In this document: in pieces, positions 1,257-13,833 of the stretch
Layout of the letters: every line of letters begins with the position of its first letter
Numbering within the stretch: position 1 is the stretch's first letter
Source: Aulosira sp. ZfuVER01
Lineage (GTDB): Bacteria > Cyanobacteriota > Cyanobacteriia > Cyanobacteriales > Nostocaceae
Reading direction: 5' to 3'
DNA: 64,000 nucleotides
Assembly (NCBI GenBank): GCA_034530615.2
Contig: JAVRCV020000037.1
Location: forward strand, 1 to 64,000
Program-made: the position numbers and the translations under genes
The notes under the pieces: generated by a model
Told to the model about the DNA's origin: nothing
Database searches by the model: none
The model's input: only the letters and a program-made list of their open reading frames with translations

Positions 1257-4200
1257 TTAATTGCATAAATTTGGGGGAACACTGGTGTGAGTTTGCAGGT
1301 AATCGCGGATTTGATTACATCCTTGTTGCCGAAAACTCTGCAAACTTACATTAAACACATTCCAGAGCAATACAACTCCATCCTTGCCGGCAGAAACTAA
1401 AAATTTACTATCGGAACTAAAACTCACGCGATTGACATCAGATTTATGTCCAATCAAAGTCATGATTAAAGTTCCATTGCGTCGCCAAAGTTTGATAGTG
1501 CGATCGCTACTGGCGGTGGCTATTATTTGTCCATTGGGGCTAATACTGGCATCAAGCACCGCCGCAGTATGTCCCTCTAGAGTGGTGATGAGTTTTCCAT
1601 CTAAACTCCAAAGTTTAGCAGTTCGGTCACTACTAGCAGTGACAATTGTTTGTCCATCTGGGCTGAAACTAGCATTCCAAATTGAACCAGCGTGTCTGAT
1701 GGAAGATTTGATTTCTTGACCATCTAAGTTCCACAACTTCACTGTTTGATCGTCACCCGCAGAGGCAATAATTTTTCCCTTTGGACTAAAATTAACGCTC
1801 AACACTCTGCCATTATGTCCTGTGAAAGTATTAAGTTCTTTGCCGTTGAGATTCCAAAGCTTCACAGTTCTATCATCACTAGCAGAGGCAATAGTTTGTC
1901 CATCAGGACTGAAGCTGACCATATTGACGCTATTTTGATGACCTGGGAGGATTTTCGGCGCTTTTCCATCTGCACTCCAAATGCTAATGCTGTTGTCATC
2001 ATTGGCAGTGGTGATCGCTCGCCCCTTTGGGCTAAAGTTCACATCATAAACGCTGTTTTGATTGATTTTTTGTGTGGAGAGTAACTTACCTTTAATATTC
2101 CACAACCTTAGCGTTCCGTCTTTACCAACACTTGCTACCTGTTGATTGTCAGGGCTAAACTTTGCACTACTGGCAGAACCTTGATGTCCTACTAAAACAG
2201 TCAACCAGTGACGATTCACTTGCCAAAGCTTCGTAAGCTTATCATTACTAGCGGTAGCAAGAATCTGCCCATCTGGACTAAAGTCTACACTGGGAATTTG
2301 TCCTTCGTGACCTGCCCATGTGTCCAGTAGTCTGCCATCTCGCGTCCAGAGTCGCACAATTCCATCTGCACTACCAGTAGCTAGTGTTTGTCCATCCCTA
2401 CTTAAACGCACACTCCATAGCTGTTCTGGGTGTTTGAGAGTTTGTATGACTTGACCCTCTTTATTCCAGAGTTTGACGGTTTTATCCAAGCTAGCAGTGG
2501 CAATGATCTGGCCATCTAGACTGAAGTCTGCACTCATCACAGTATCATCATGTGCCGAGAGAGTTTGCAATGGCTTTCCGTCTCGTTGCCAGAATTTTAA
2601 TGTCTTGTCATTGCTGATTGTGATTATTCGATTACCATCAGGACTAAAACGCACCTGCCTGACTGATTTATCATGTCCCGTAAGTGTTGTTATCGGCTGA
2701 CCATTAACTCGCCACAGTTTAGCTGTTTTATCTTTGCTTGCAGTAGCAATGGTTTGACCATCAGGACTAAATGCTACACTCAAAACTGAATCCTGATGAG
2801 CCTTGAAACTCCCGATCAAATTGCCATCACGCTGCCAAAGTCTTACAGTTCCATCTTGACTAGCTGAAGCAATCATCTGGCTATCGGAACTAAAGGCCAC
2901 ACTGATTACAGGTTTTGTATGTCCCTTGAGAGTTTTAATCAAACTACCATCTAATCGCCAGAGCTTAACTGTATTGTCATAGCTAGCTGTAGCCAGAATC
3001 TTACCATCTGGGCTAAAACTCACACTTTGAACAACATCTTGATGTCCCTCCAGACGGTTACATTCTCGCGTCCAGTAGACTGCTTGCCCCAAGGATGTCT
3101 GCATCTGTGCTTGTATTTTTTGCAGCGTGTTACCCCAAACACTTGACTGCAAGCGATTAGCTGCATCTAAGCCGACCATTAAAGAATCAAATGTATTGCG
3201 ATTAATGGTAAAACGGGCTGTTGAAATTTGTTCTAGGGCAATAATCTGAGCTTCTTCGGCTCTTTGATACTGAATGGTCGAAAAAGTGGCTAGTGTTAAT
3301 GCTACAACGGAAAAAGCAGATAATCCCAGAATTGTCCTTAGGCGTTGGCGATCGCGCAATTCTACGCTGCTATCTATAAACTTGTTTGCTGTTATACTAA
3401 AACCACCCAAAACTTGATTAAAAGTTGGGTCTTGTCTTAACTCTAAAACCTGCTCTAACTTCGATCCGCTCCAAAGTTCATCGTCTGTTTTTTTAGCTTG
3501 CCAACGTGCTACATCATCGTTGAGGCGGTTACGTAATCCTATAGCTTGGTGATTTTCTTGAATCCAGGTATTAAGAGTTGTCCAAGAAGTTAATAGAATT
3601 TCATGGGCAATTTCTATTGTAGATTCTGAGGATTGCGATTGGCGATCGCCAGGTATTGCTGCAGCAACATCACTGACTAAAAGATTTTCATTAACTAACT
3701 TTTCTAATAAATCTTTCTCTAGTTGGTCGTTAAATTCGGAAATGTTCGCTCGACGACGTATTGGCTTCCATCCACTATCAAGTTTATCGTTTTCACCAAC
3801 ACCAACTAGTTTCAAAAATATTCTTTGGGCAGCTAGCTTTTGTTGTGCCGATAAAGCATCATAAATAAAATCTACACGTTGTTGTAGCGCTCCTCTAACA
3901 CCACCTAATCCTCGATAAGTACTAATATTTAGTGTGCGGTCTTGAATACTATTCGTTTTTACTTCTGTCTCCCAGAGTAAATCTAAGGTGTACTGCAATA
4001 AGGGTAAATAGCCTGCTTGTCCTTGGATATCTTGAATGATTTCCTCTACCAATCCAGTTTCTAATACTACCCCATGCTGGGCTGCAGGTTGCTCAATTGC
4101 TAACCGCAACTCATCTGGTTGCATTTCTGCAATCATCGGACGATGCCGATCTGTAGCTTTAATAAGTTGGGCATAGGGGCTTAATCTATCCAGAAAATCA

Positions 4201-4832
4201 GCCCGCATGGTTGCCATGATTTTGATAGAATCATGCTGAGTTTTACTTAATTGCACCAAGCTAGCGATAAACTGGTCACGCTTTTGGGGTTGACTACTAG
4301 TAAATAACTCTTCTAATTGGTCAATAAAAATAAAATAGTAATCATCAGTCTGCTTTAATCTGCTTACTACTTGTGTTAGTGTATCAGCTTTAGCTTCACG
4401 GGCAATTTGGGCTTCAGTTTGTTTATATTTTCCTAATAAACTGCCATATAAAGATTCAAACGGATCGCCATCTGGAGTAAATATCAATTTAACTAACCGC
4501 GATCCCCATTTTTGTGAAAGCCAGGGAATTAAACCTGCACGTATAACAGATGATTTACCACTACCACTAGCTCCCAAAAGTAAAATTAAGTTGCTCTGTT
4601 CTAGTTCATTGACTAAACTTGTCAGAAATTGATCTCGTCCAAAAAATAAGTCTTTATCTTCTGGCTCAAATTTCTTTAAGCCTTTGTAGGGAGAGGTTAG
4701 GATCAATTGACGGGTTTTAATTTCTGCAACCGAGATTTGCAAAATTTGAGTTTGGTTAAACGTAACAACGCTACTGTCACCAATCGAAACATTACTTATC
4801 TTTTGCTGACTGCTAGGAAATTCCTGATTCAT
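1257..4832 (-). CDS. nSTAND1 NTPase - TM helix - ~14 WD40 repeats (NLR-like protein)
   Basis: SPYKGL..F...D..LFFGR, Walker A GASGSGKSS, Walker B FIFIDQLEE, EIAHE motif, hydrophobic TILGLSAFSVVALTLATF, then GH...V.FSPDG..IATAS.D.TVKLW repeats. Start set at ATG 4832, which overlaps the upstream stop (ATGA). Confidence 0.92.
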   Translation of the reverse strand: MNQEFPSSQQKISNVSIGDSSVVTFNQTQILQISVAEIKTRQLILTSPYKGLKKFEPEDKDLFFGRDQFLTSLVNELEQSNLILLLGASGSGKSSVIRAGLIPWLSQKWGSRLVKLIFTPDGDPFESLYGSLLGKYKQTEAQIAREAKADTLTQVVSRLKQTDDYYFIFIDQLEELFTSSQPQKRDQFIASLVQLSKTQHDSIKIMATMRADFLDRLSPYAQLIKATDRHRPMIAEMQPDELRLAIEQPAAQHGVVLETGLVEEIIQDIQGQAGYLPLLQYTLDLLWETEVKTNSIQDRTLNISTYRGLGGVRGALQQRVDFIYDALSAQQKLAAQRIFLKLVGVGENDKLDSGWKPIRRRANISEFNDQLEKDLLEKLVNENLLVSDVAAAIPGDRQSQSSESTIEIAHEILLTSWTTLNTWIQENHQAIGLRNRLNDDVARWQAKKTDDELWSGSKLEQVLELRQDPTFNQVLGGFSITANKFIDSSVELRDRQRLRTILGLSAFSVVALTLATFSTIQYQRAEEAQIIALEQISTARFTINRNTFDSLMVGLDAANRLQSSVWGNTLQKIQAQMQTSLGQAVYWTRECNRLEGHQDVVQSVSFSPDGKILATASYDNTVKLWRLDGSLIKTLKGHTKPVISVAFSSDSQMIASASQDGTVRLWQRDGNLIGSFKAHQDSVLSVAFSPDGQTIATASKDKTAKLWRVNGQPITTLTGHDKSVRQVRFSPDGNRIITISNDKTLKFWQRDGKPLQTLSAHDDTVMSADFSLDGQIIATASLDKTVKLWNKEGQVIQTLKHPEQLWSVRLSRDGQTLATGSADGIVRLWTRDGRLLDTWAGHEGQIPSVDFSPDGQILATASNDKLTKLWQVNRHWLTVLVGHQGSASSAKFSPDNQQVASVGKDGTLRLWNIKGKLLSTQKINQNSVYDVNFSPKGRAITTANDDNSISIWSADGKAPKILPGHQNSVNMVSFSPDGQTIASASDDRTVKLWNLNGKELNTFTGHNGRVLSVNFSPKGKIIASAGDDQTVKLWNLDGQEIKSSIRHAGSIWNASFSPDGQTIVTASSDRTAKLWSLDGKLITTLEGHTAAVLDASISPNGQIIATASSDRTIKLWRRNGTLIMTLIGHKSDVNRVSFSSDSKFLVSAGKDGVVLLWNVFNVSLQSFRQQGCNQIRDYLQTHTSVPPNLCN

Positions 4833-5347
4833 ATCCCCGCCCATAACTTAGCAACCAAAGGTGCTAATTTTAATGCTGGTTCAGCTATTTCCGCAACTCC
4901 CGTTAAACCCTTTTTCAGAGCGGCGATAGACTGTTCCACTAAGTTTTTGTCTGGCTTCGGCTTATTTAATTCCCCTTCAATTGTCTGTAGCGGGACTTCT
5001 AATGTTTTCTTTTCTATCGGGTTTAAGGCATTACTTGTGGCAATATCCTGTTTCAATTTTGAGAGTAATGTAAGAGCTTCTTGGACATCAACATTCTGAA
5101 CTCTAGCCTGAATCTTACTTTGACTGACATTGCTTCCCCCATCTGCTTGGTTCTGATTAAAATCAATACCAGAGTTACCGCTACCAATGGTGATACCTTC
5201 AATATTTTGAGAGTGAGACTCCACAACTTTCGCAGCAGTAGCTATACTACCTAAAACACTAGGTAAAGACTCTTGCAGTTCCAGCTTTTCTTCATCTGTG
5301 AGGTTTTTGATGATTTCTAAAACCTCACCAACGCTGTATTTCGGCAT
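4829..5347 (-). CDS. small helical protein with a central N/Q/G/S-rich amyloid-like motif, translationally coupled to the NLR
   Basis: ATG at 5347 (MPKYSVGEV...), 172 aa; its TGA overlaps the NLR ATG. Confidence 0.8.
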   Translation of the reverse strand: MPKYSVGEVLEIIKNLTDEEKLELQESLPSVLGSIATAAKVVESHSQNIEGITIGSGNSGIDFNQNQADGGSNVSQSKIQARVQNVDVQEALTLLSKLKQDIATSNALNPIEKKTLEVPLQTIEGELNKPKPDKNLVEQSIAALKKGLTGVAEIAEPALKLAPLVAKLWAGI

Positions 5348-7860: not shown

Positions 7861-10800
7861 ATGAGTATTACCATTGCTGGTTACAATCTCATCGAGGTTC
7901 TATATGACGGTACTACTACCTGTGTTTATCGTGCCCTACGAGAGCCAGAGCAAACATCAGTAATTATTAAAACTTTGAAAGCTGAGTATCCCACAATACA
8001 ACAGCTAACGCAATTAAGACATGAATATCAAATACTCCAACCTGTGGAAATAGAAGGAATTGTTAAACCCTTAGCTTTGGAGAATTATCAAAATGGTTTA
8101 GCACTAATTCTCTCAGATTTTGCCGGAGAACCTTTAAAAAATTTTATTAACAATCAAAATTTTGACTTAAGCATTTTTTTGAACACTGCTATTCAACTAG
8201 CTACTATTCTTTCACAATTACACCAAAACAATATTATTCATAAAGATATTAAGCCGCAAAATATTTTAATTAATCCGCAAACATGTCAAGTAAAAATTAT
8301 TGACTTTAGTATTTCATCATGTCTATCCAAAGAAAGTCAGAACCCTAGCGATCCTAACTTGTTAGAAGGTACCCTCGCCTATATGTCTCCAGAGCAAACA
8401 GGCAGGATGAACCGTTCAATTGATTATCGGACTGATTTTTATTCTTTAGGTGCCACTTTCTATGAAATGTTAACAGGGCAGCTACCTTTTCAAGTTCATG
8501 ACTCTTTAGAATTAGTCCATTGCCACATTGCTAAAACACCAGTACCTCCTCAAGAAATTAACTCACAAATTCCTTCAGTAATTTCTGATATTGTCATGAA
8601 ATTATTAGCCAAAACTGCTGAGGATAGATATCAAAATGCCTTGGGACTTAAAGCAGACTTAGAAAAATGCTTACAACAATTACAAGCAACTGGAAAAATT
8701 GCAAATTTTAGCATCGGTCAGCTGGATTTATATAGCCAATTTGTTATTCCTCAAAAACTTTATGGCCGCGAGAAAGAAGTTGCCATTCTCATGAATGCCT
8801 TTGAGCGAGTTAGTGTTGGGTCAACTGAGATAATGTTAGTAAGTGGGTACTCTGGTATAGGAAAATCCTGCTTAGTAAATGAAGTTCATAAACTGATAGT
8901 CCGTCAACGGGGCTATTTTATTTCGGGTAAATTTGACCAATTTAAACGTAATATTCCTTATGCTTCTTTAATTCAAGCTTTTCAAGAATTAATCAGGCAG
9001 TTATTAACAGAAAGTAGCAAGCAAATAGCAATTTGGCAAGCAAAGCTTTTAGCAGCATTGGGTAACAATGCTCAAGTTATTATTGATGTTATTCCTGAAG
9101 TAGAAAGAATTACTGGGTCTCAACCAGAAGTTCCGCAATTAGGCCCTGCTGAATCGCAAAACCGATTTAATCGACTGTTTCAACAATTTATTCATGTATT
9201 TTGTAAACCAGAACATCCGTTGGTAGTGTTCTTAGATGACTTACAATGGGCAGATTCAGCTTCATTAAAGTTGATTCAGTTGCTTGCGAATGACCCAGAT
9301 AGTCAATATTTATTACTGATTGGTGCGTATCGAGATAACGAAGTCCATTCCACTCATCCTTTAATGTTAACTTTAGAAGAAATTCAAAAATTAGGTGCAG
9401 TTGTCAACAATATTGTGCTTCAGCCTTTGCGAATTTCTTATGTTAACGAATTAGTTAGTGATACTCTCCACACCCACTCACAAAAGTCAGAATCACTAGC
9501 TGATTTAGTGTACAAAAAAACTCAGGGGAATCCTTTTTTCTTAACCCAACTACTCAAATCACTTTATCAAGAGAACTTATTGTCATTTAATTTCAGCGAA
9601 GCTTGCTGGCAGTGGGATATCCATCGTCTAGAAAATATTGATATCACTGATAATGTGATTGAATTAATGGTCAGCCAGATTCAAAAGCTGTTGCCGACTA
9701 CACAGAATGTTTTAAAGTTAGCTGCTTGTATTGGTGACAAGTTTACTTTAGATATTCTGAATATTGTTAATGAAAAATCTTTATCAGAAACCGCTAAAGA
9801 TTTATGGGAGTCTTTACAAGCAGGATTAGTTCTTCCCTTAAACCAGTCTTACAAAATTCCCCTGGTATTTGACTCAGACAACATAACGACTGTGCCGAAA
9901 AATGCCCAGTCAACAATTACCTACAAATTCCTGCATGACCGAGTGCAGCAAGCCGCTTATTCCTTGATTCTCCCAGAGGATAAAAAACAAACTCACCTAA
10001 AAATTGGCAAACTGTTACTCAAACATACTCCAGAAGCAGAACTCGAAGAAAATATATTTGAAATTGTCAACCAGTTAAATGTTGGTGCTGAATTAATTAC
10101 TCAGCAATCTGAAAAAGATGAACTCGCGCAACTTAATTTAATTGCCGGCAAGAAAGCCAAAGCAGCAACAGCTTATGAAACTGCTGTTCGGTATTTATCT
10201 AACGGACTAGAACTGCTTTCTGATGATAGCTGGAATCATCAATATAATTTGACATTAGATTTGTATGTGGAAGCTACAGGAGCAGAGTATCTAAATCTGA
10301 ATGCCGAACGAGCAACAACTCTGGCGGAAGTAGTTCTCAAACAAGCGAAAAGTTTGCTTGATAAAGTCAAAATTTATGAACTACAAATGCTGTTTTATAT
10401 CCAGAGAAATCAAATGAAAGCCGCATTAGAAACTGGGCTCAAAGTTCTGGATATGATGGGTGTAAATCTGGCAACTGTTCCGCCGGAAAAGATGGATGTC
10501 GAAGAATTGGCGAACCGTCCAGAAATGACTGATGCAGAGCATTTAGCAATCATGCGGATTTTAGTCAGCTGTGCGGCTCCAGCTTATGCAACTACTCCGG
10601 AGGTATTTCCTAGTATTGCTTTTACACTTGTGAATCAAAGTGTTGAACATGGTAATACATCGCTATCTGCATTTGGATATGCTCTTTATGGCTTAATTCT
10701 CTGCGCTATTTTAGGAGATATTGAAACAGGATATCGCTATGGCAAACTCGGTTTAAAGCTGTTAGAGCAATTTAATGCTAAACAATTAAAAGCTGCTGTT

Positions 10801-13800
10801 CATAATATAGTTCACGGTCATATTATCCATTGGAAAGAACACGCCAGAGAATGTATTGTTCCTTTGCTGGATGGTGTACTAACGGGGTTAGAATTTGGCG
10901 ATTTAGAATGGTCTGGCTATGATTTTTTCTATGCTTGCGACCAGATGTTTTTTATTGGTCAACCGCTGGAAGAAGTTGCCCAAAAGCAAGCGCAGCATCT
11001 TGATTCTTTAATCAAACTCAAACTCGATTTTCATAGTTCTTACCTCAAGAGTTGGCGCATTGCAGTATTAAAATTACTCGATGCACCAGAGGAAGAATAC
11101 CATTGTCATGGCGAAATTCTCGATGCTGATGCTCTGTTACCAAAGTTAATCAAAGCTGATAACAACATGTTGTTGTTTGCAGCTTACTTTACTAGAGCTA
11201 TTCTCTATTATTTTGCTAAAGATTATGCGCGATCGCTTGACTACACAACTTTAGCAGAGAAACATTTAGGGGGCGTAAACGGTCTGAGTCTGAATGCTAC
11301 TTATAGGTTATATTATTCTCTCGCTCTGTTGGCTCAATATCCTCATGTTTTAAAGGAAGAACAACCGCAAATTCTCGAAAAAGTTACCCAGAATCAGCAG
11401 AAAATGCAAGAATGGGCTGTTCATGCTCCGATGAATTTTCAGCACAAATATGATTTGGTGGAAGCAGAGAAAGCACGAGTTTTGGGACAACCTTTAGTAG
11501 CGATGGATCTGTACGATCGCGCCATCTCTAACGCTAAAGAACAAGGATTTCTCCATGAAGAAGCAGTAGCCGCAGAATTAGCAGCTGAATTTTATTTTCA
11601 GCGTGGTAGGGAAAACCTTGCTAAAGATTATTTAACTCAATCCTACTATGCCTATGCTCAATGGGGAGCAAACGTCAAACTTAAAGATTTTGAAGCAAAA
11701 TATCCGCATATTTTCTCCCGCAGCCTGAAGCGAAAAGCCAAAATCCTAGAGATGAATCAGACGATTAGCTCTACGACTACAGGTAGTCCTGGGGGTTTGG
11801 ATTTAGCCGCAGTTATGAAAGCTTCGCAAGCACTTTCTGGAGAGATTTTTCTGGATAAATTGTTGAATAATTTGATGCAAATTTTAATTGAAAATGCGGG
11901 TGCAGAAAAGGGATTTTTAATTTTAGAAACAGCAGGAAAGTTACAAATAGCCGCTTCAGGAAGTGTAGATAAAGATGAAATCAATGTCCAGCAATTAATA
12001 CCTGTGGAAAGCAGTCAGCAGCTACCAATATCCATCATCAACTATGTGCAGCGAACACAGAAAGATGTGGTTCTGAATGATGCTACTAGTGAAACGGTAT
12101 TTAACCTGGATAACTATATTATCAGCCAAAAACCAAAATCTATTTTATGTGCGCCAATTGTGAATCAAGGTAAACTCATTGGCATTCTTTATTTAGAAAA
12201 TAATTTAACAACTGGAGCATTTACACCAGAACGCTTGGAAGTTTTACAACTTTTATCATCGCAAGCAGCCATCTCAATTGAAAATGCCCGCCTTTATCAT
12301 GATTTAGAAGAATATAATCGCACACTGGAAGTCAGAGTAAAAGAGCGAACCCTGGAATTACAAGCCAAAAATTTGCAACTGCAACAGGAAATCCGCGATC
12401 GCCAACGCGCTGAAGAAGCAGCCGAAACCGCCAACCGCGCCAAAAGCCAATTCCTCGCTAGTATGAGTCATGAACTCCGCACACCTCTGAATGGGATTTT
12501 GGGTTACGCGCAAATTCTCAATAAAAATAACGGCTTTACGGCTGAAGAAAAGAATGGGGTAAACATCATTTATCAATGTGGCGAACATTTACTCACACTG
12601 ATTAACGATATTTTAGATCTCTCTAAAATTGAGGCTGGAAAATTAGAACTTTATCCTACAGAATTTTCTTTTCCAGATTTTCTCGAAGGTATTGTGCAAA
12701 TCTGCAAAATTCGTAGCGAACAAAAAGGAATTTCTTTAATTTATAATCAACTATCTTCTGTACCTAAAATTGTGCGTGCCGATGAAAAACGGTTACGGCA
12801 AGTTTTAATTAATTTACTGAGCAATGCTGTCAAATTTACTGAAAAAGGTAGTGTAAAATTCCAGGTGGGATATCATGAAGGTAAATTACGGTTTCAGGTA
12901 GAAGATACAGGCATAGGTATAGCCGAGGAGCAATTAGAAGAAATATTTTTGCCTTTTAAGCAGGTAGGCGAAGATAGCCGCAAGACTGAAGGTACAGGTT
13001 TAGGATTGGCAATTAGCCGTCAATTAGTTGAGATGATGGGTGGTGAACTCAAAGTTAAAAGTACTTTAGGTAAAGGTAGTGTTTTCTGGCTAGATTTGGA
13101 TTTACCGGAGGTTGTTTTCCCAATTAATGTTAAGAAAGTTGTTGAACGTAACATAATTGGTTTTATTGGTGAGAGAAAGAAGATTTTAGTGGTAGACGAT
13201 AAATGGGCAAATCGTTCTGTTTTAGTTAATTTACTAAAACCTTTAGGGTTTGAAATTTTAGAAGCAACAGATGGCTTAGACTGTCTTCACAAAGCCTCAG
13301 AATTTAAGCCAGATTTAATTTTTATGGACTTGGTAATGACTGTAATGGATGGTTTTGAAGCCACTCGTCGTTTGCGGATGTTACCAAACTTCAAAGAAGT
13401 AAAAGTAATTGCTATATCAGCTAGCGTTTTTGATTTTGAGCAAAAGCAGAGTCTAGAAGTAGGTTGTAATGATTTTCTACCTAAACCATTCCGAGTTGCA
13501 GAACTTTTAGAAAAATTAAGAATTCACTTAGGCTTGGAATGGATTTATGAAGAAATAGAAATTGAGCCAAAACAACAAAAAGATGTTAATCTAAAAACAA
13601 AAATTCAAAATTTACAACTAATTCCTCCATCAGCAGAGGAAATTGCAATTTTGCTAGATTTGGCAATGAAAGGAGACCTCAGGAGTCTTGCCCAAAAAGC
13701 AACACAATTAGAGGAGTTAGATGAACAATTGTTACCATTTGCCACTCATTTGCGCCAACTGGCTAAAGAGTTTAAAGGAAAACAAATCGTAGATTTTATT

Positions 13801-13833
13801 AAACAATATTCACAGTCGGCTGGAAGTAATTAG
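7861..13833 (+). CDS. Ser/Thr kinase - AAA ATPase - helical region - GAF - HisKA/HATPase - receiver (HstK-like multidomain kinase)
   Basis: HKDIKPQN and DFS kinase motifs, GYSGIGKS, VFLDDLQWAD, GAF (LIGILYLENN), H-box MSHELRTPLN, G-box GTGLGLAI, receiver DLIFMD. Confidence 0.95.
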   Translation: MSITIAGYNLIEVLYDGTTTCVYRALREPEQTSVIIKTLKAEYPTIQQLTQLRHEYQILQPVEIEGIVKPLALENYQNGLALILSDFAGEPLKNFINNQNFDLSIFLNTAIQLATILSQLHQNNIIHKDIKPQNILINPQTCQVKIIDFSISSCLSKESQNPSDPNLLEGTLAYMSPEQTGRMNRSIDYRTDFYSLGATFYEMLTGQLPFQVHDSLELVHCHIAKTPVPPQEINSQIPSVISDIVMKLLAKTAEDRYQNALGLKADLEKCLQQLQATGKIANFSIGQLDLYSQFVIPQKLYGREKEVAILMNAFERVSVGSTEIMLVSGYSGIGKSCLVNEVHKLIVRQRGYFISGKFDQFKRNIPYASLIQAFQELIRQLLTESSKQIAIWQAKLLAALGNNAQVIIDVIPEVERITGSQPEVPQLGPAESQNRFNRLFQQFIHVFCKPEHPLVVFLDDLQWADSASLKLIQLLANDPDSQYLLLIGAYRDNEVHSTHPLMLTLEEIQKLGAVVNNIVLQPLRISYVNELVSDTLHTHSQKSESLADLVYKKTQGNPFFLTQLLKSLYQENLLSFNFSEACWQWDIHRLENIDITDNVIELMVSQIQKLLPTTQNVLKLAACIGDKFTLDILNIVNEKSLSETAKDLWESLQAGLVLPLNQSYKIPLVFDSDNITTVPKNAQSTITYKFLHDRVQQAAYSLILPEDKKQTHLKIGKLLLKHTPEAELEENIFEIVNQLNVGAELITQQSEKDELAQLNLIAGKKAKAATAYETAVRYLSNGLELLSDDSWNHQYNLTLDLYVEATGAEYLNLNAERATTLAEVVLKQAKSLLDKVKIYELQMLFYIQRNQMKAALETGLKVLDMMGVNLATVPPEKMDVEELANRPEMTDAEHLAIMRILVSCAAPAYATTPEVFPSIAFTLVNQSVEHGNTSLSAFGYALYGLILCAILGDIETGYRYGKLGLKLLEQFNAKQLKAAVHNIVHGHIIHWKEHARECIVPLLDGVLTGLEFGDLEWSGYDFFYACDQMFFIGQPLEEVAQKQAQHLDSLIKLKLDFHSSYLKSWRIAVLKLLDAPEEEYHCHGEILDADALLPKLIKADNNMLLFAAYFTRAILYYFAKDYARSLDYTTLAEKHLGGVNGLSLNATYRLYYSLALLAQYPHVLKEEQPQILEKVTQNQQKMQEWAVHAPMNFQHKYDLVEAEKARVLGQPLVAMDLYDRAISNAKEQGFLHEEAVAAELAAEFYFQRGRENLAKDYLTQSYYAYAQWGANVKLKDFEAKYPHIFSRSLKRKAKILEMNQTISSTTTGSPGGLDLAAVMKASQALSGEIFLDKLLNNLMQILIENAGAEKGFLILETAGKLQIAASGSVDKDEINVQQLIPVESSQQLPISIINYVQRTQKDVVLNDATSETVFNLDNYIISQKPKSILCAPIVNQGKLIGILYLENNLTTGAFTPERLEVLQLLSSQAAISIENARLYHDLEEYNRTLEVRVKERTLELQAKNLQLQQEIRDRQRAEEAAETANRAKSQFLASMSHELRTPLNGILGYAQILNKNNGFTAEEKNGVNIIYQCGEHLLTLINDILDLSKIEAGKLELYPTEFSFPDFLEGIVQICKIRSEQKGISLIYNQLSSVPKIVRADEKRLRQVLINLLSNAVKFTEKGSVKFQVGYHEGKLRFQVEDTGIGIAEEQLEEIFLPFKQVGEDSRKTEGTGLGLAISRQLVEMMGGELKVKSTLGKGSVFWLDLDLPEVVFPINVKKVVERNIIGFIGERKKILVVDDKWANRSVLVNLLKPLGFEILEATDGLDCLHKASEFKPDLIFMDLVMTVMDGFEATRRLRMLPNFKEVKVIAISASVFDFEQKQSLEVGCNDFLPKPFRVAELLEKLRIHLGLEWIYEEIEIEPKQQKDVNLKTKIQNLQLIPPSAEEIAILLDLAMKGDLRSLAQKATQLEELDEQLLPFATHLRQLAKEFKGKQIVDFIKQYSQSAGSN

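Follow-up and report, generated by a model that had tools for sequence, protein, structure and literature searches.

In the window, the 64,000-nucleotide stretch of DNA analyzed here (contig C37 of an 8.0-Mb genome whose named relatives are Calothrix, Nostoc, and other cyanobacteria), two overlapping genes encode a small helical protein (P0001) and an nSTAND1-WD40 receptor (P0002) with matching Q/N/G/S-rich motifs, and these motifs co-vary across homologous gene pairs. On balance, we read the pair as a two-gene defense or cell death switch that would work by amyloid signaling of the BASS/HET-s kind with the layout of the effector reversed, a reading to which we give slightly better than even weight. 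The motif-tagged four-helix domain may represent a novel type of switchable cell death effector.

Table 1. Features of the gene pair and its flank in the window
Feature	Position	Strand
Partner gene P0001, 172 aa: hairpin, motif, four-helix bundle	4829..5347	-
N-terminal two-helix hairpin of P0001, residues 1-38; subfamily specific, replaceable	5234..5347	-
Partner-side Q/N/G/S-rich motif, P0001 residues 47-67; modeled as disordered	5147..5209	-
C-terminal four-helix bundle of P0001, residues 85-172; last helix the most hydrophobic	4832..5095	-
Partner stop and receptor start, overlapping in ATGA	4829..4832	-
Receptor gene P0002, 1191 aa: motif, nSTAND1, hydrophobic helix, WD40 repeats	1257..4832	-
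Receptor-side motif, P0002 residues 10-29	4746..4805	-
nSTAND1 NTPase domain, P0002 residues 48-451; Walker A GASGSGKS at residues 87-94	3480..4691	-
Predicted transmembrane helix, P0002 residues ~500-520; basic cluster ahead	3273..3335	-
14 WD40 stretches, putative sensor; probably two propellers	1344..3053	-
Third codirectional gene, 31 bp past receptor, truncated at contig end	2..1225	-

The ATGA overlap of the two genes, described in an earlier note on this DNA, was confirmed in the sequence: the receptor ATG (4832-4830) overlaps the partner TGA (4831-4829). P0002 also has an alternative in-frame ATG at 4844, and in several orthologues only the -4 start is present. The nSTAND1 domain was detected with an E value of 1.4e-109 in a Pfam-type domain scan. 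As the note had said, the receptor has no other N-terminal effector domain, and its motif is N-terminal; the motif does not, however, start the protein as claimed but begins at residue 10, with nSTAND1 following from residue 48. A promoter and terminator scan gave 8 promoter-like sites against 12.7 expected.

The third gene occupies the same position in two close relatives (L001:10114- and L002:10143-) and exceeds 800 aa in L001. A likeness of its first residues to papain-type proteases was not confirmed, with no Pfam match in 408, 801, or 791 aa. The third gene is conserved behind WD40-type receptors, and the shorter 730-aa receptors (L003, L004, L008, and L010) are followed by a different 420-aa gene, suggesting that sensor domain and downstream gene are swapped as a set. 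Elsewhere in the window, positions 7861-13833 (plus strand) encode a 1990-aa protein of the kinase-ATPase-GAF-histidine kinase-receiver type, judged by eye from the translation; such proteins are frequent in cyanobacteria.

The motif match between P0001 and P0002 is above chance. Translation placed both motifs where they had been claimed, positions 5209-5147 (minus strand) encoding QNIEGITIGSGNSGIDFNQNQ in the partner and positions 4805-4746 (minus strand) encoding QKISNVSIGDSSVVTFNQTQ in the receptor. Both fit the pattern given in the earlier note, and no further ORF did so when the genome was translated in all six frames, although this pattern was derived from the same two sequences and is therefore weak by itself. 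The local score of the pair was 42, compared to 22.2 +/- 4.1 for shuffles, of which 4/5000 reached 42. Among 2731 N-termini (genome ORFs of at least 300 aa), the receptor ranked first by a narrow margin (42 versus 39 for the next), and the motif profiles of the partner and receptor families matched each other with an E value of 1.1e-5 (probability 82). The match of the window pair itself is modest (score 42), which counts against our reading. Complex prediction for the receptor N-terminus and three partner motifs gave no answer (score 0.02) and does not enter the argument. The DNA of the two copies is identical at 32 of 57 bases (56%), which rules out a recent duplication of the motif.

Homologues of the partner were collected from 237 loci, in which bundle-only profiles gave 227 matches; 178 unique proteins were left after the removal of duplicates and of matches with fewer than 25 residues ahead of the bundle. 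Motif-bearing members are favored in this sample because the loci were originally found by whole-module queries. Crude patterns divided the 178 N-termini into CHAT (62), short or none (52), hairpin (43), other (14), and pentapeptide (7), with some "other" and "short" entries being CHAT or hairpin variants that the patterns missed. The catalytic-cysteine motif is kept in 61 of the 62 CHAT partners, and further fusions join the module to TIR, TRADD-N, Bell-like, AbiTii, LRR-Roc, and HTH-like sequences. The constant unit is the motif followed by the C-terminal bundle, and the 35-residue hairpin can be replaced by CHAT, TIR, a Bell-like domain, or nothing. The central position of the motif between helical domains, as first described, holds only in the window subfamily. 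Subfamily profiles align mutually (E values of 8e-10 and 6e-10), and three profiles match 27/401, 70/401, and 30/401 sampled genomes, respectively.

The genome of the window (G000) contains a second pair, L165 (C16:33850-36436), in which a motif-plus-bundle protein with a different motif and no N-terminal domain is paired with a NACHT protein whose C-terminal part is hydrophobic; upstream of the pair are transposase-like ORFs. Multi-TM and pentapeptide-type proteins that end in a distant version of the motif-plus-bundle module are encoded at C16:58125-60164, C7:168498-170555, and C55:74895-75800. No STAND gene lies behind the C16 and C55 copies, and the C7 copy stops at the contig end. Two caspase-like-nSTAND1 receptors (C41:201774-205756 and C74:421-4391) are each preceded by a gene of 127 to 134 aa, and these pairs may resemble protease-activated effector modules.

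A downstream P-loop ORF is present for 114 of the 178 partners. The two genes are no more than 50 bp apart in 78 of these 114 pairs; they overlap in 31 and do not overlap in 83. The 64 partners with no P-loop ORF directly behind them (9 of them close to a locus edge, the other 55 with none within 700 bp) count against our reading; 4 partners lacking a P-loop ORF still have a matching neighbor. Among 36 paired receptors that were scanned, 28 were nSTAND1 and 6 were NACHT, 1 had no domain match, and 1 had neither domain in its best five matches; their C-termini were WD40, pentapeptide, CHASE2, or unassigned. The transmembrane helix that had been reported ahead of the WD40 repeats of P0002 is predicted, although only moderately hydrophobic (Kyte-Doolittle 19-mer, 1.8), but it is not special to this receptor, as a window with a Kyte-Doolittle value of at least 1.8 lies past the NTPase in 25 of 34 long receptors.

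Co-variation of the motifs in homologous gene pairs, which the earlier note had proposed as a check, was found. In 67 pairs dereplicated at 70%, the mean motif score was 57.4 for cognate and 31.3 for non-cognate combinations, and 60 of the 67 cognate pairs beat their shuffles. Sister contrasts gave 24 up, 2 tied, and 7 down (p 0.0017) and 22 up and 11 down (p 0.04), compared to 17:13 and 15:16 for bundle-versus-N-terminus controls; in a second set of 99 pairs dereplicated at 90%, the contrasts were 31:13 and 34:12. The partial Mantel correlation, net of NTPase and bundle similarity, was 0.30 (0/2000 permutations; 65 pairs, with L188 and L204 left out, whose receptors start with hydrophobic segments and show no match). 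However, the bundle and the NTPase co-vary as well (partial r 0.39), so part of the motif signal is shared history, and kin are non-independent. The cognate receptor also ranked first for only 14 of 67 partners, which counts against our reading but is expected if the members of a subfamily are interchangeable. The most telling cases are receptor swaps, in which the motif travels with the partner onto another receptor type: the match is kept in L039 (NACHT), L237 (nSTAND1 with the other motif type), and L042 (trypsin-CHASE2), with 0/1000 shuffles reaching it in each. At L042 (2330-4453), a CHAT-motif-bundle gene is followed by a gene for a trypsin-CHASE2 protein that has a matching N-terminal motif and no STAND domain.

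These data also bear on whether the match could be left over from an ancient duplication or an ancestral fusion, or could be the product of frameshift read-through of both ORFs, with no functional coupling through the motifs. Such an origin would fit the fused AbiTii-motif-bundle forms, the overlap in 31/114 pairs, and the mutual likeness of low-complexity Q/N/S/G segments, whose non-cognate mean of 31.3 exceeds the value of about 21 for controls. It does not fit the 32/57 bases shared by the two copies, the 83/114 pairs without overlap, or the several distinct motif types that each match their own neighbor, also after receptor swaps. This explanation is already disfavored, and we regard it as very improbable.

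P0001 matched no Pfam or NCBIfam family. Its AlphaFold2 model has helices at residues 6-38, pLDDT values below 50 at residues 36-83, and then four helices up to the C-terminus, and the motif was again unstructured in a second run with a deeper, 62-sequence alignment; both runs gave an N-terminal hairpin, a motif within an unstructured region, and a four-helix bundle predicted with confidence. Identity to P0001, compared across 35 homologues, was 0.77 in the hairpin, 0.40 in the first linker, 0.62 in the motif, 0.47 in the second linker, and 0.71 in the bundle, so that the motif is better conserved than either linker. There is no proline among 751 motif positions in these homologues. The motif is rich in S, Q, N, and G and poor in L, K, and E, a bias near that given for BASS in the text of Dyrka et al. 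(10.1101/2020.01.06.895854).

The same text describes Bell/NLR pairs (BASS1-10) with the motif C-terminal to the Bell domain and with NB-ARC or NACHT receptors. Like these, the window pair consists of adjacent collinear genes, often overlapping in such systems, that share a matching Q/N/G-rich motif of 20 to 25 residues between the neighbor and a receptor N-terminus with no other effector; both kinds occur in filamentous cyanobacteria, with CHAT and TIR as alternative effectors. In contrast, the motif of P0001 is not at the effector C-terminus, as 105 residues come after it, including the 88-residue bundle, which has no Bell similarity detectable in a low-power test. Also in contrast, P0002 is neither NB-ARC nor NACHT but nSTAND1, as are most module receptors, with a predicted membrane helix. 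The position of the motif and the type of receptor both place the window pair outside the canonical Bell/NLR class. That the partner is not a Bell domain, as first proposed, would fit the lack of a HetE-N match in P0001 and a probability of 1.5 for the bundle against three Bell-like sequences, a low-power comparison from which P0106, a protein itself holding the bundle, was excluded.

In the comparison with RHIM suggested in the note, the [VI]-Q-[VILC]-G tetrad is in neither window motif and 12 segments gave no Pfam RHIM match; no Pfam motif matched the window motifs at all. The tetrad occurs in none of the 49 pairs from three bundle-profile groups; in the fourth group, 6 of 18 partners have it. 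At L267 (1-1839), a 126-aa HetE-N protein, presumably Bell-like, has a related motif at its C-terminus and lies next to an nSTAND1 receptor that shares 52% identity with P0002. The L267 motif scored 42 against its own receptor (2/5000) and higher, 63 and 62, against bundle-associated motifs. P0106 joins a Bell-like domain, the motif, and the bundle in one protein, and together with L267 this indicates that a single family of motifs is used with both layouts by the same clade of receptors. The combination of Bell-like protein and nSTAND1 at L267 lies outside the NB-ARC/NACHT screen as its text describes it.

In the available part of PMC8086366 supplement 1, a published C09 member has the word RSVSIG plus context in common with the sister subfamily hb4, and we infer from set size that C09 is BASS6. 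A strict BASS6-like pattern occurs in 11 of 56 hb4 partners and a looser one in 18 of 23 hb4 receptors, with none in other subfamilies. A word search of the same part of the supplement did not find FNQTQ, GINIG, GITIG, QSFGN, SIGDS, NISNV, GNITIS, or GQAGRD, and VTFNQ was found there in negative sets only. C12/BASS7, from the available part of PMC8086366, is loosely alike by eye. In the E. coli antiphage system Bab/Agp (BASS11), the motif of a sensor N-terminus was tested and activates a small helical death effector, according to the accessible text (10.1101/2024.11.07.622273); the order of motif and helical domain is reversed in P0001. The portion of Kaur et al. (PMC8195603) consulted describes nSTAND1 systems that couple to effectors of neighboring genes through shared folded adaptor domains; P0002 belongs to the same NTPase clade, but its coupling to P0001 is through a short disordered motif. 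Internal motifs that serve as scaffolds in fungal NLRs, as the available text of PMC9815663 describes, are a separate case. In the literature covered, which included Dyrka et al. 2020 without figures and tables, we found no effector with a motif before a bundle and no amyloid motifs on bacterial nSTAND1 receptors. The CHAT-associated motif of Fig. S5 in that paper, judged from its text, could belong to the module family.

We consider amyloid coupling mediated by the motifs probable, because of the co-variation, the receptor swaps, the conservation, composition, and disorder of the motif and its lack of proline, the L267 locus, and the RSVSIG likeness. The motifs might instead be non-amyloid docking strands that recruit the partner by a beta contact, or protease-sensitive linkers that CHAT cuts to free the bundle, as for EACC1, a proteolytically activated effector in the available text of 10.1101/2025.11.14.688446. 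Many members have CHAT fused directly ahead of the motif, and disorder is equally typical of a cleavable linker. However, a cleavage site would have no need of a co-varying copy in the receptor, and the sequenced part of the window operon has no recognizable protease, so we find docking or cleavage rather unlikely.

Under amyloid coupling, the receptor would sit in the membrane with its NTPase and motif in the cytoplasm and its WD40 propellers on the far side. A ligand would trigger STAND oligomerization, which would bring the N-terminal motifs together as a cross-beta seed, and this seed would convert the matching, disordered motif in the 172-aa protein. Conversion of the motif would then cluster or unfold the bundle and free its hydrophobic last helix, leading to membrane damage and sacrifice of the cell. 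Relatives with a CHAT protease or TIR domain fused ahead of the motif would have that domain clustered as well at this step. All of these steps are drawn by analogy to HET-S and Bab.

That the four-helix bundle is itself a membrane-acting effector, a role proposed by analogy, is a possibility to which we give slightly less than even weight. In its favor, 37/114 paired partners were classed as having little or nothing before the motif, the last helix is the most hydrophobic, and the module matches PDC-M14B and, indirectly, AbiTi. In 60 of 67 members, the window of highest hydrophobicity in the bundle ends no more than 8 residues from the C-terminus, and 143 of 178 have a tryptophan within the last 20 residues of the bundle. 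Counting against this role, the last helix is amphipathic and not a clear transmembrane helix (Kyte-Doolittle 1.15 in P0001; medians of 0.77 to 1.27), and a fold search with the bundle returned only generic four-helix bundles (best Z of 11.5), by which no family is excluded. The C-terminal 100 positions of the PADLOC profile PDC-M14B match the module in 41/41 members (E value of 6.5e-7 for P0001), with the N-terminal part of PDC-M14B missing from the window family; for PDC-M14, we found no describing text in the literature and no match in 10.1101/2024.01.29.577857. Atlas matches of the partner to DUF4404, DUF5955, and TCAD2 (scores below 0.9) are leads only, with Pfam matches below cutoff in 2 to 4 of 41 members; a DUF4404 search in this genome found nothing, but its controls were likewise silent.

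The chief rival accepts amyloid coupling and makes the bundle a cap, chaperone, scaffold, or adaptor that amplifies or damps the fibril, with the killing done by a CHAT or TIR protein elsewhere, the third gene, or another protein. Consistent with this, 62/178 partners carry CHAT, 61 of them with the catalytic-cysteine motif; TIR, TRADD-N, and Bell-like fusions retain the bundle despite having an effector of their own; close relatives keep the third gene behind the receptor; and a broader role fits the third of partners without an adjacent receptor. However, 37/114 paired partners consist of motif and bundle alone and another 37/114 add only the 35-residue hairpin, and the third gene varies with the C-terminal domain of the receptor, and we rate this alternative as unlikely, if plausible. 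Pentapeptide, LRR-Roc, and HTH-like proteins also end in the module, which counts against our reading and, with the 64/178 partners lacking a P-loop neighbor, may point to a general structural role.

Returning to the bundle as effector, its link to the experimentally tested abortive-infection protein AbiTi is about evenly balanced on sequence comparison. AbiTii proteins fused to motif and bundle match the PADLOC AbiTi profile almost end to end (positions 5-111 or 5-113 of 114; E values of 1.3e-9 and 5.7e-10), and these fused modules align with the window family by profile comparison (E values of 1e-6 and 1.7e-8). Against the link, the AbiTi profile directly matched only 1 of 41 module members (E value of 0.0014); it had no match at the module loci of this genome. 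AbiTii had none in the three window proteins, and the neighbor of P0001 is an nSTAND1-WD40 protein. L253 (1807-3157), in a Bacteriovorax MAG, is a split AbiT-like pair whose two genes have matching motifs: the first gene has the motif and a helical region at its end, and the AbiTii gene behind it ends in a motif that matches (65; 0/5000). The AbiTii tail matches positions 3-26 of the AbiTi profile, and the helical region is unmatched by the bundle profiles, which counts against the link. At L264/L266 (G1431:C10), two AbiTii-motif-bundle genes lie in tandem. PDB 8VER, on which AbiTi is superposed in the available part of the review PMC13064643, ranked 15 in the fold search with the P0001 model. 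That part reads AbiTi as endoribonuclease-like and makes no mention of amyloid, and AbiT is listed among systems with transmembrane proteins in the accessible text of 10.1101/2024.10.26.620412. Lactococcal AbiT (AbiTi plus AbiTii) is unlike the window pair in having no STAND receptor, and the link is indirect; its sequences were not found among the plasmid matches listed or in 401 genomes of that class.

A wider proposal, which we put forward tentatively and hold to be doubtful, is that motif plus bundle would be a widespread amyloid-switched death effector mirroring Bell/HeLo, driven by transmembrane nSTAND1 or NACHT receptors in cyanobacteria and by unrelated sensors elsewhere; AbiTi would be a member, so that lactococcal AbiT, long without an explanation, would signal by amyloid templating from the AbiTii tail. 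Published screens, as described in the text of 10.1101/2020.01.06.895854, sought motifs at effector C-termini next to NB-ARC/NACHT genes and would therefore have missed a reversed layout on nSTAND1 receptors by design. If our reading is correct, it would give bacterial amyloid signaling a second small helical effector class with more than 100 pairs (114 in this sample) and extend such signaling to receptors that may sense across the membrane. It would also offer a mechanism of AbiT that can be tested directly; the available part of the 2026 review (PMC13064643) leaves open how AbiT kills.
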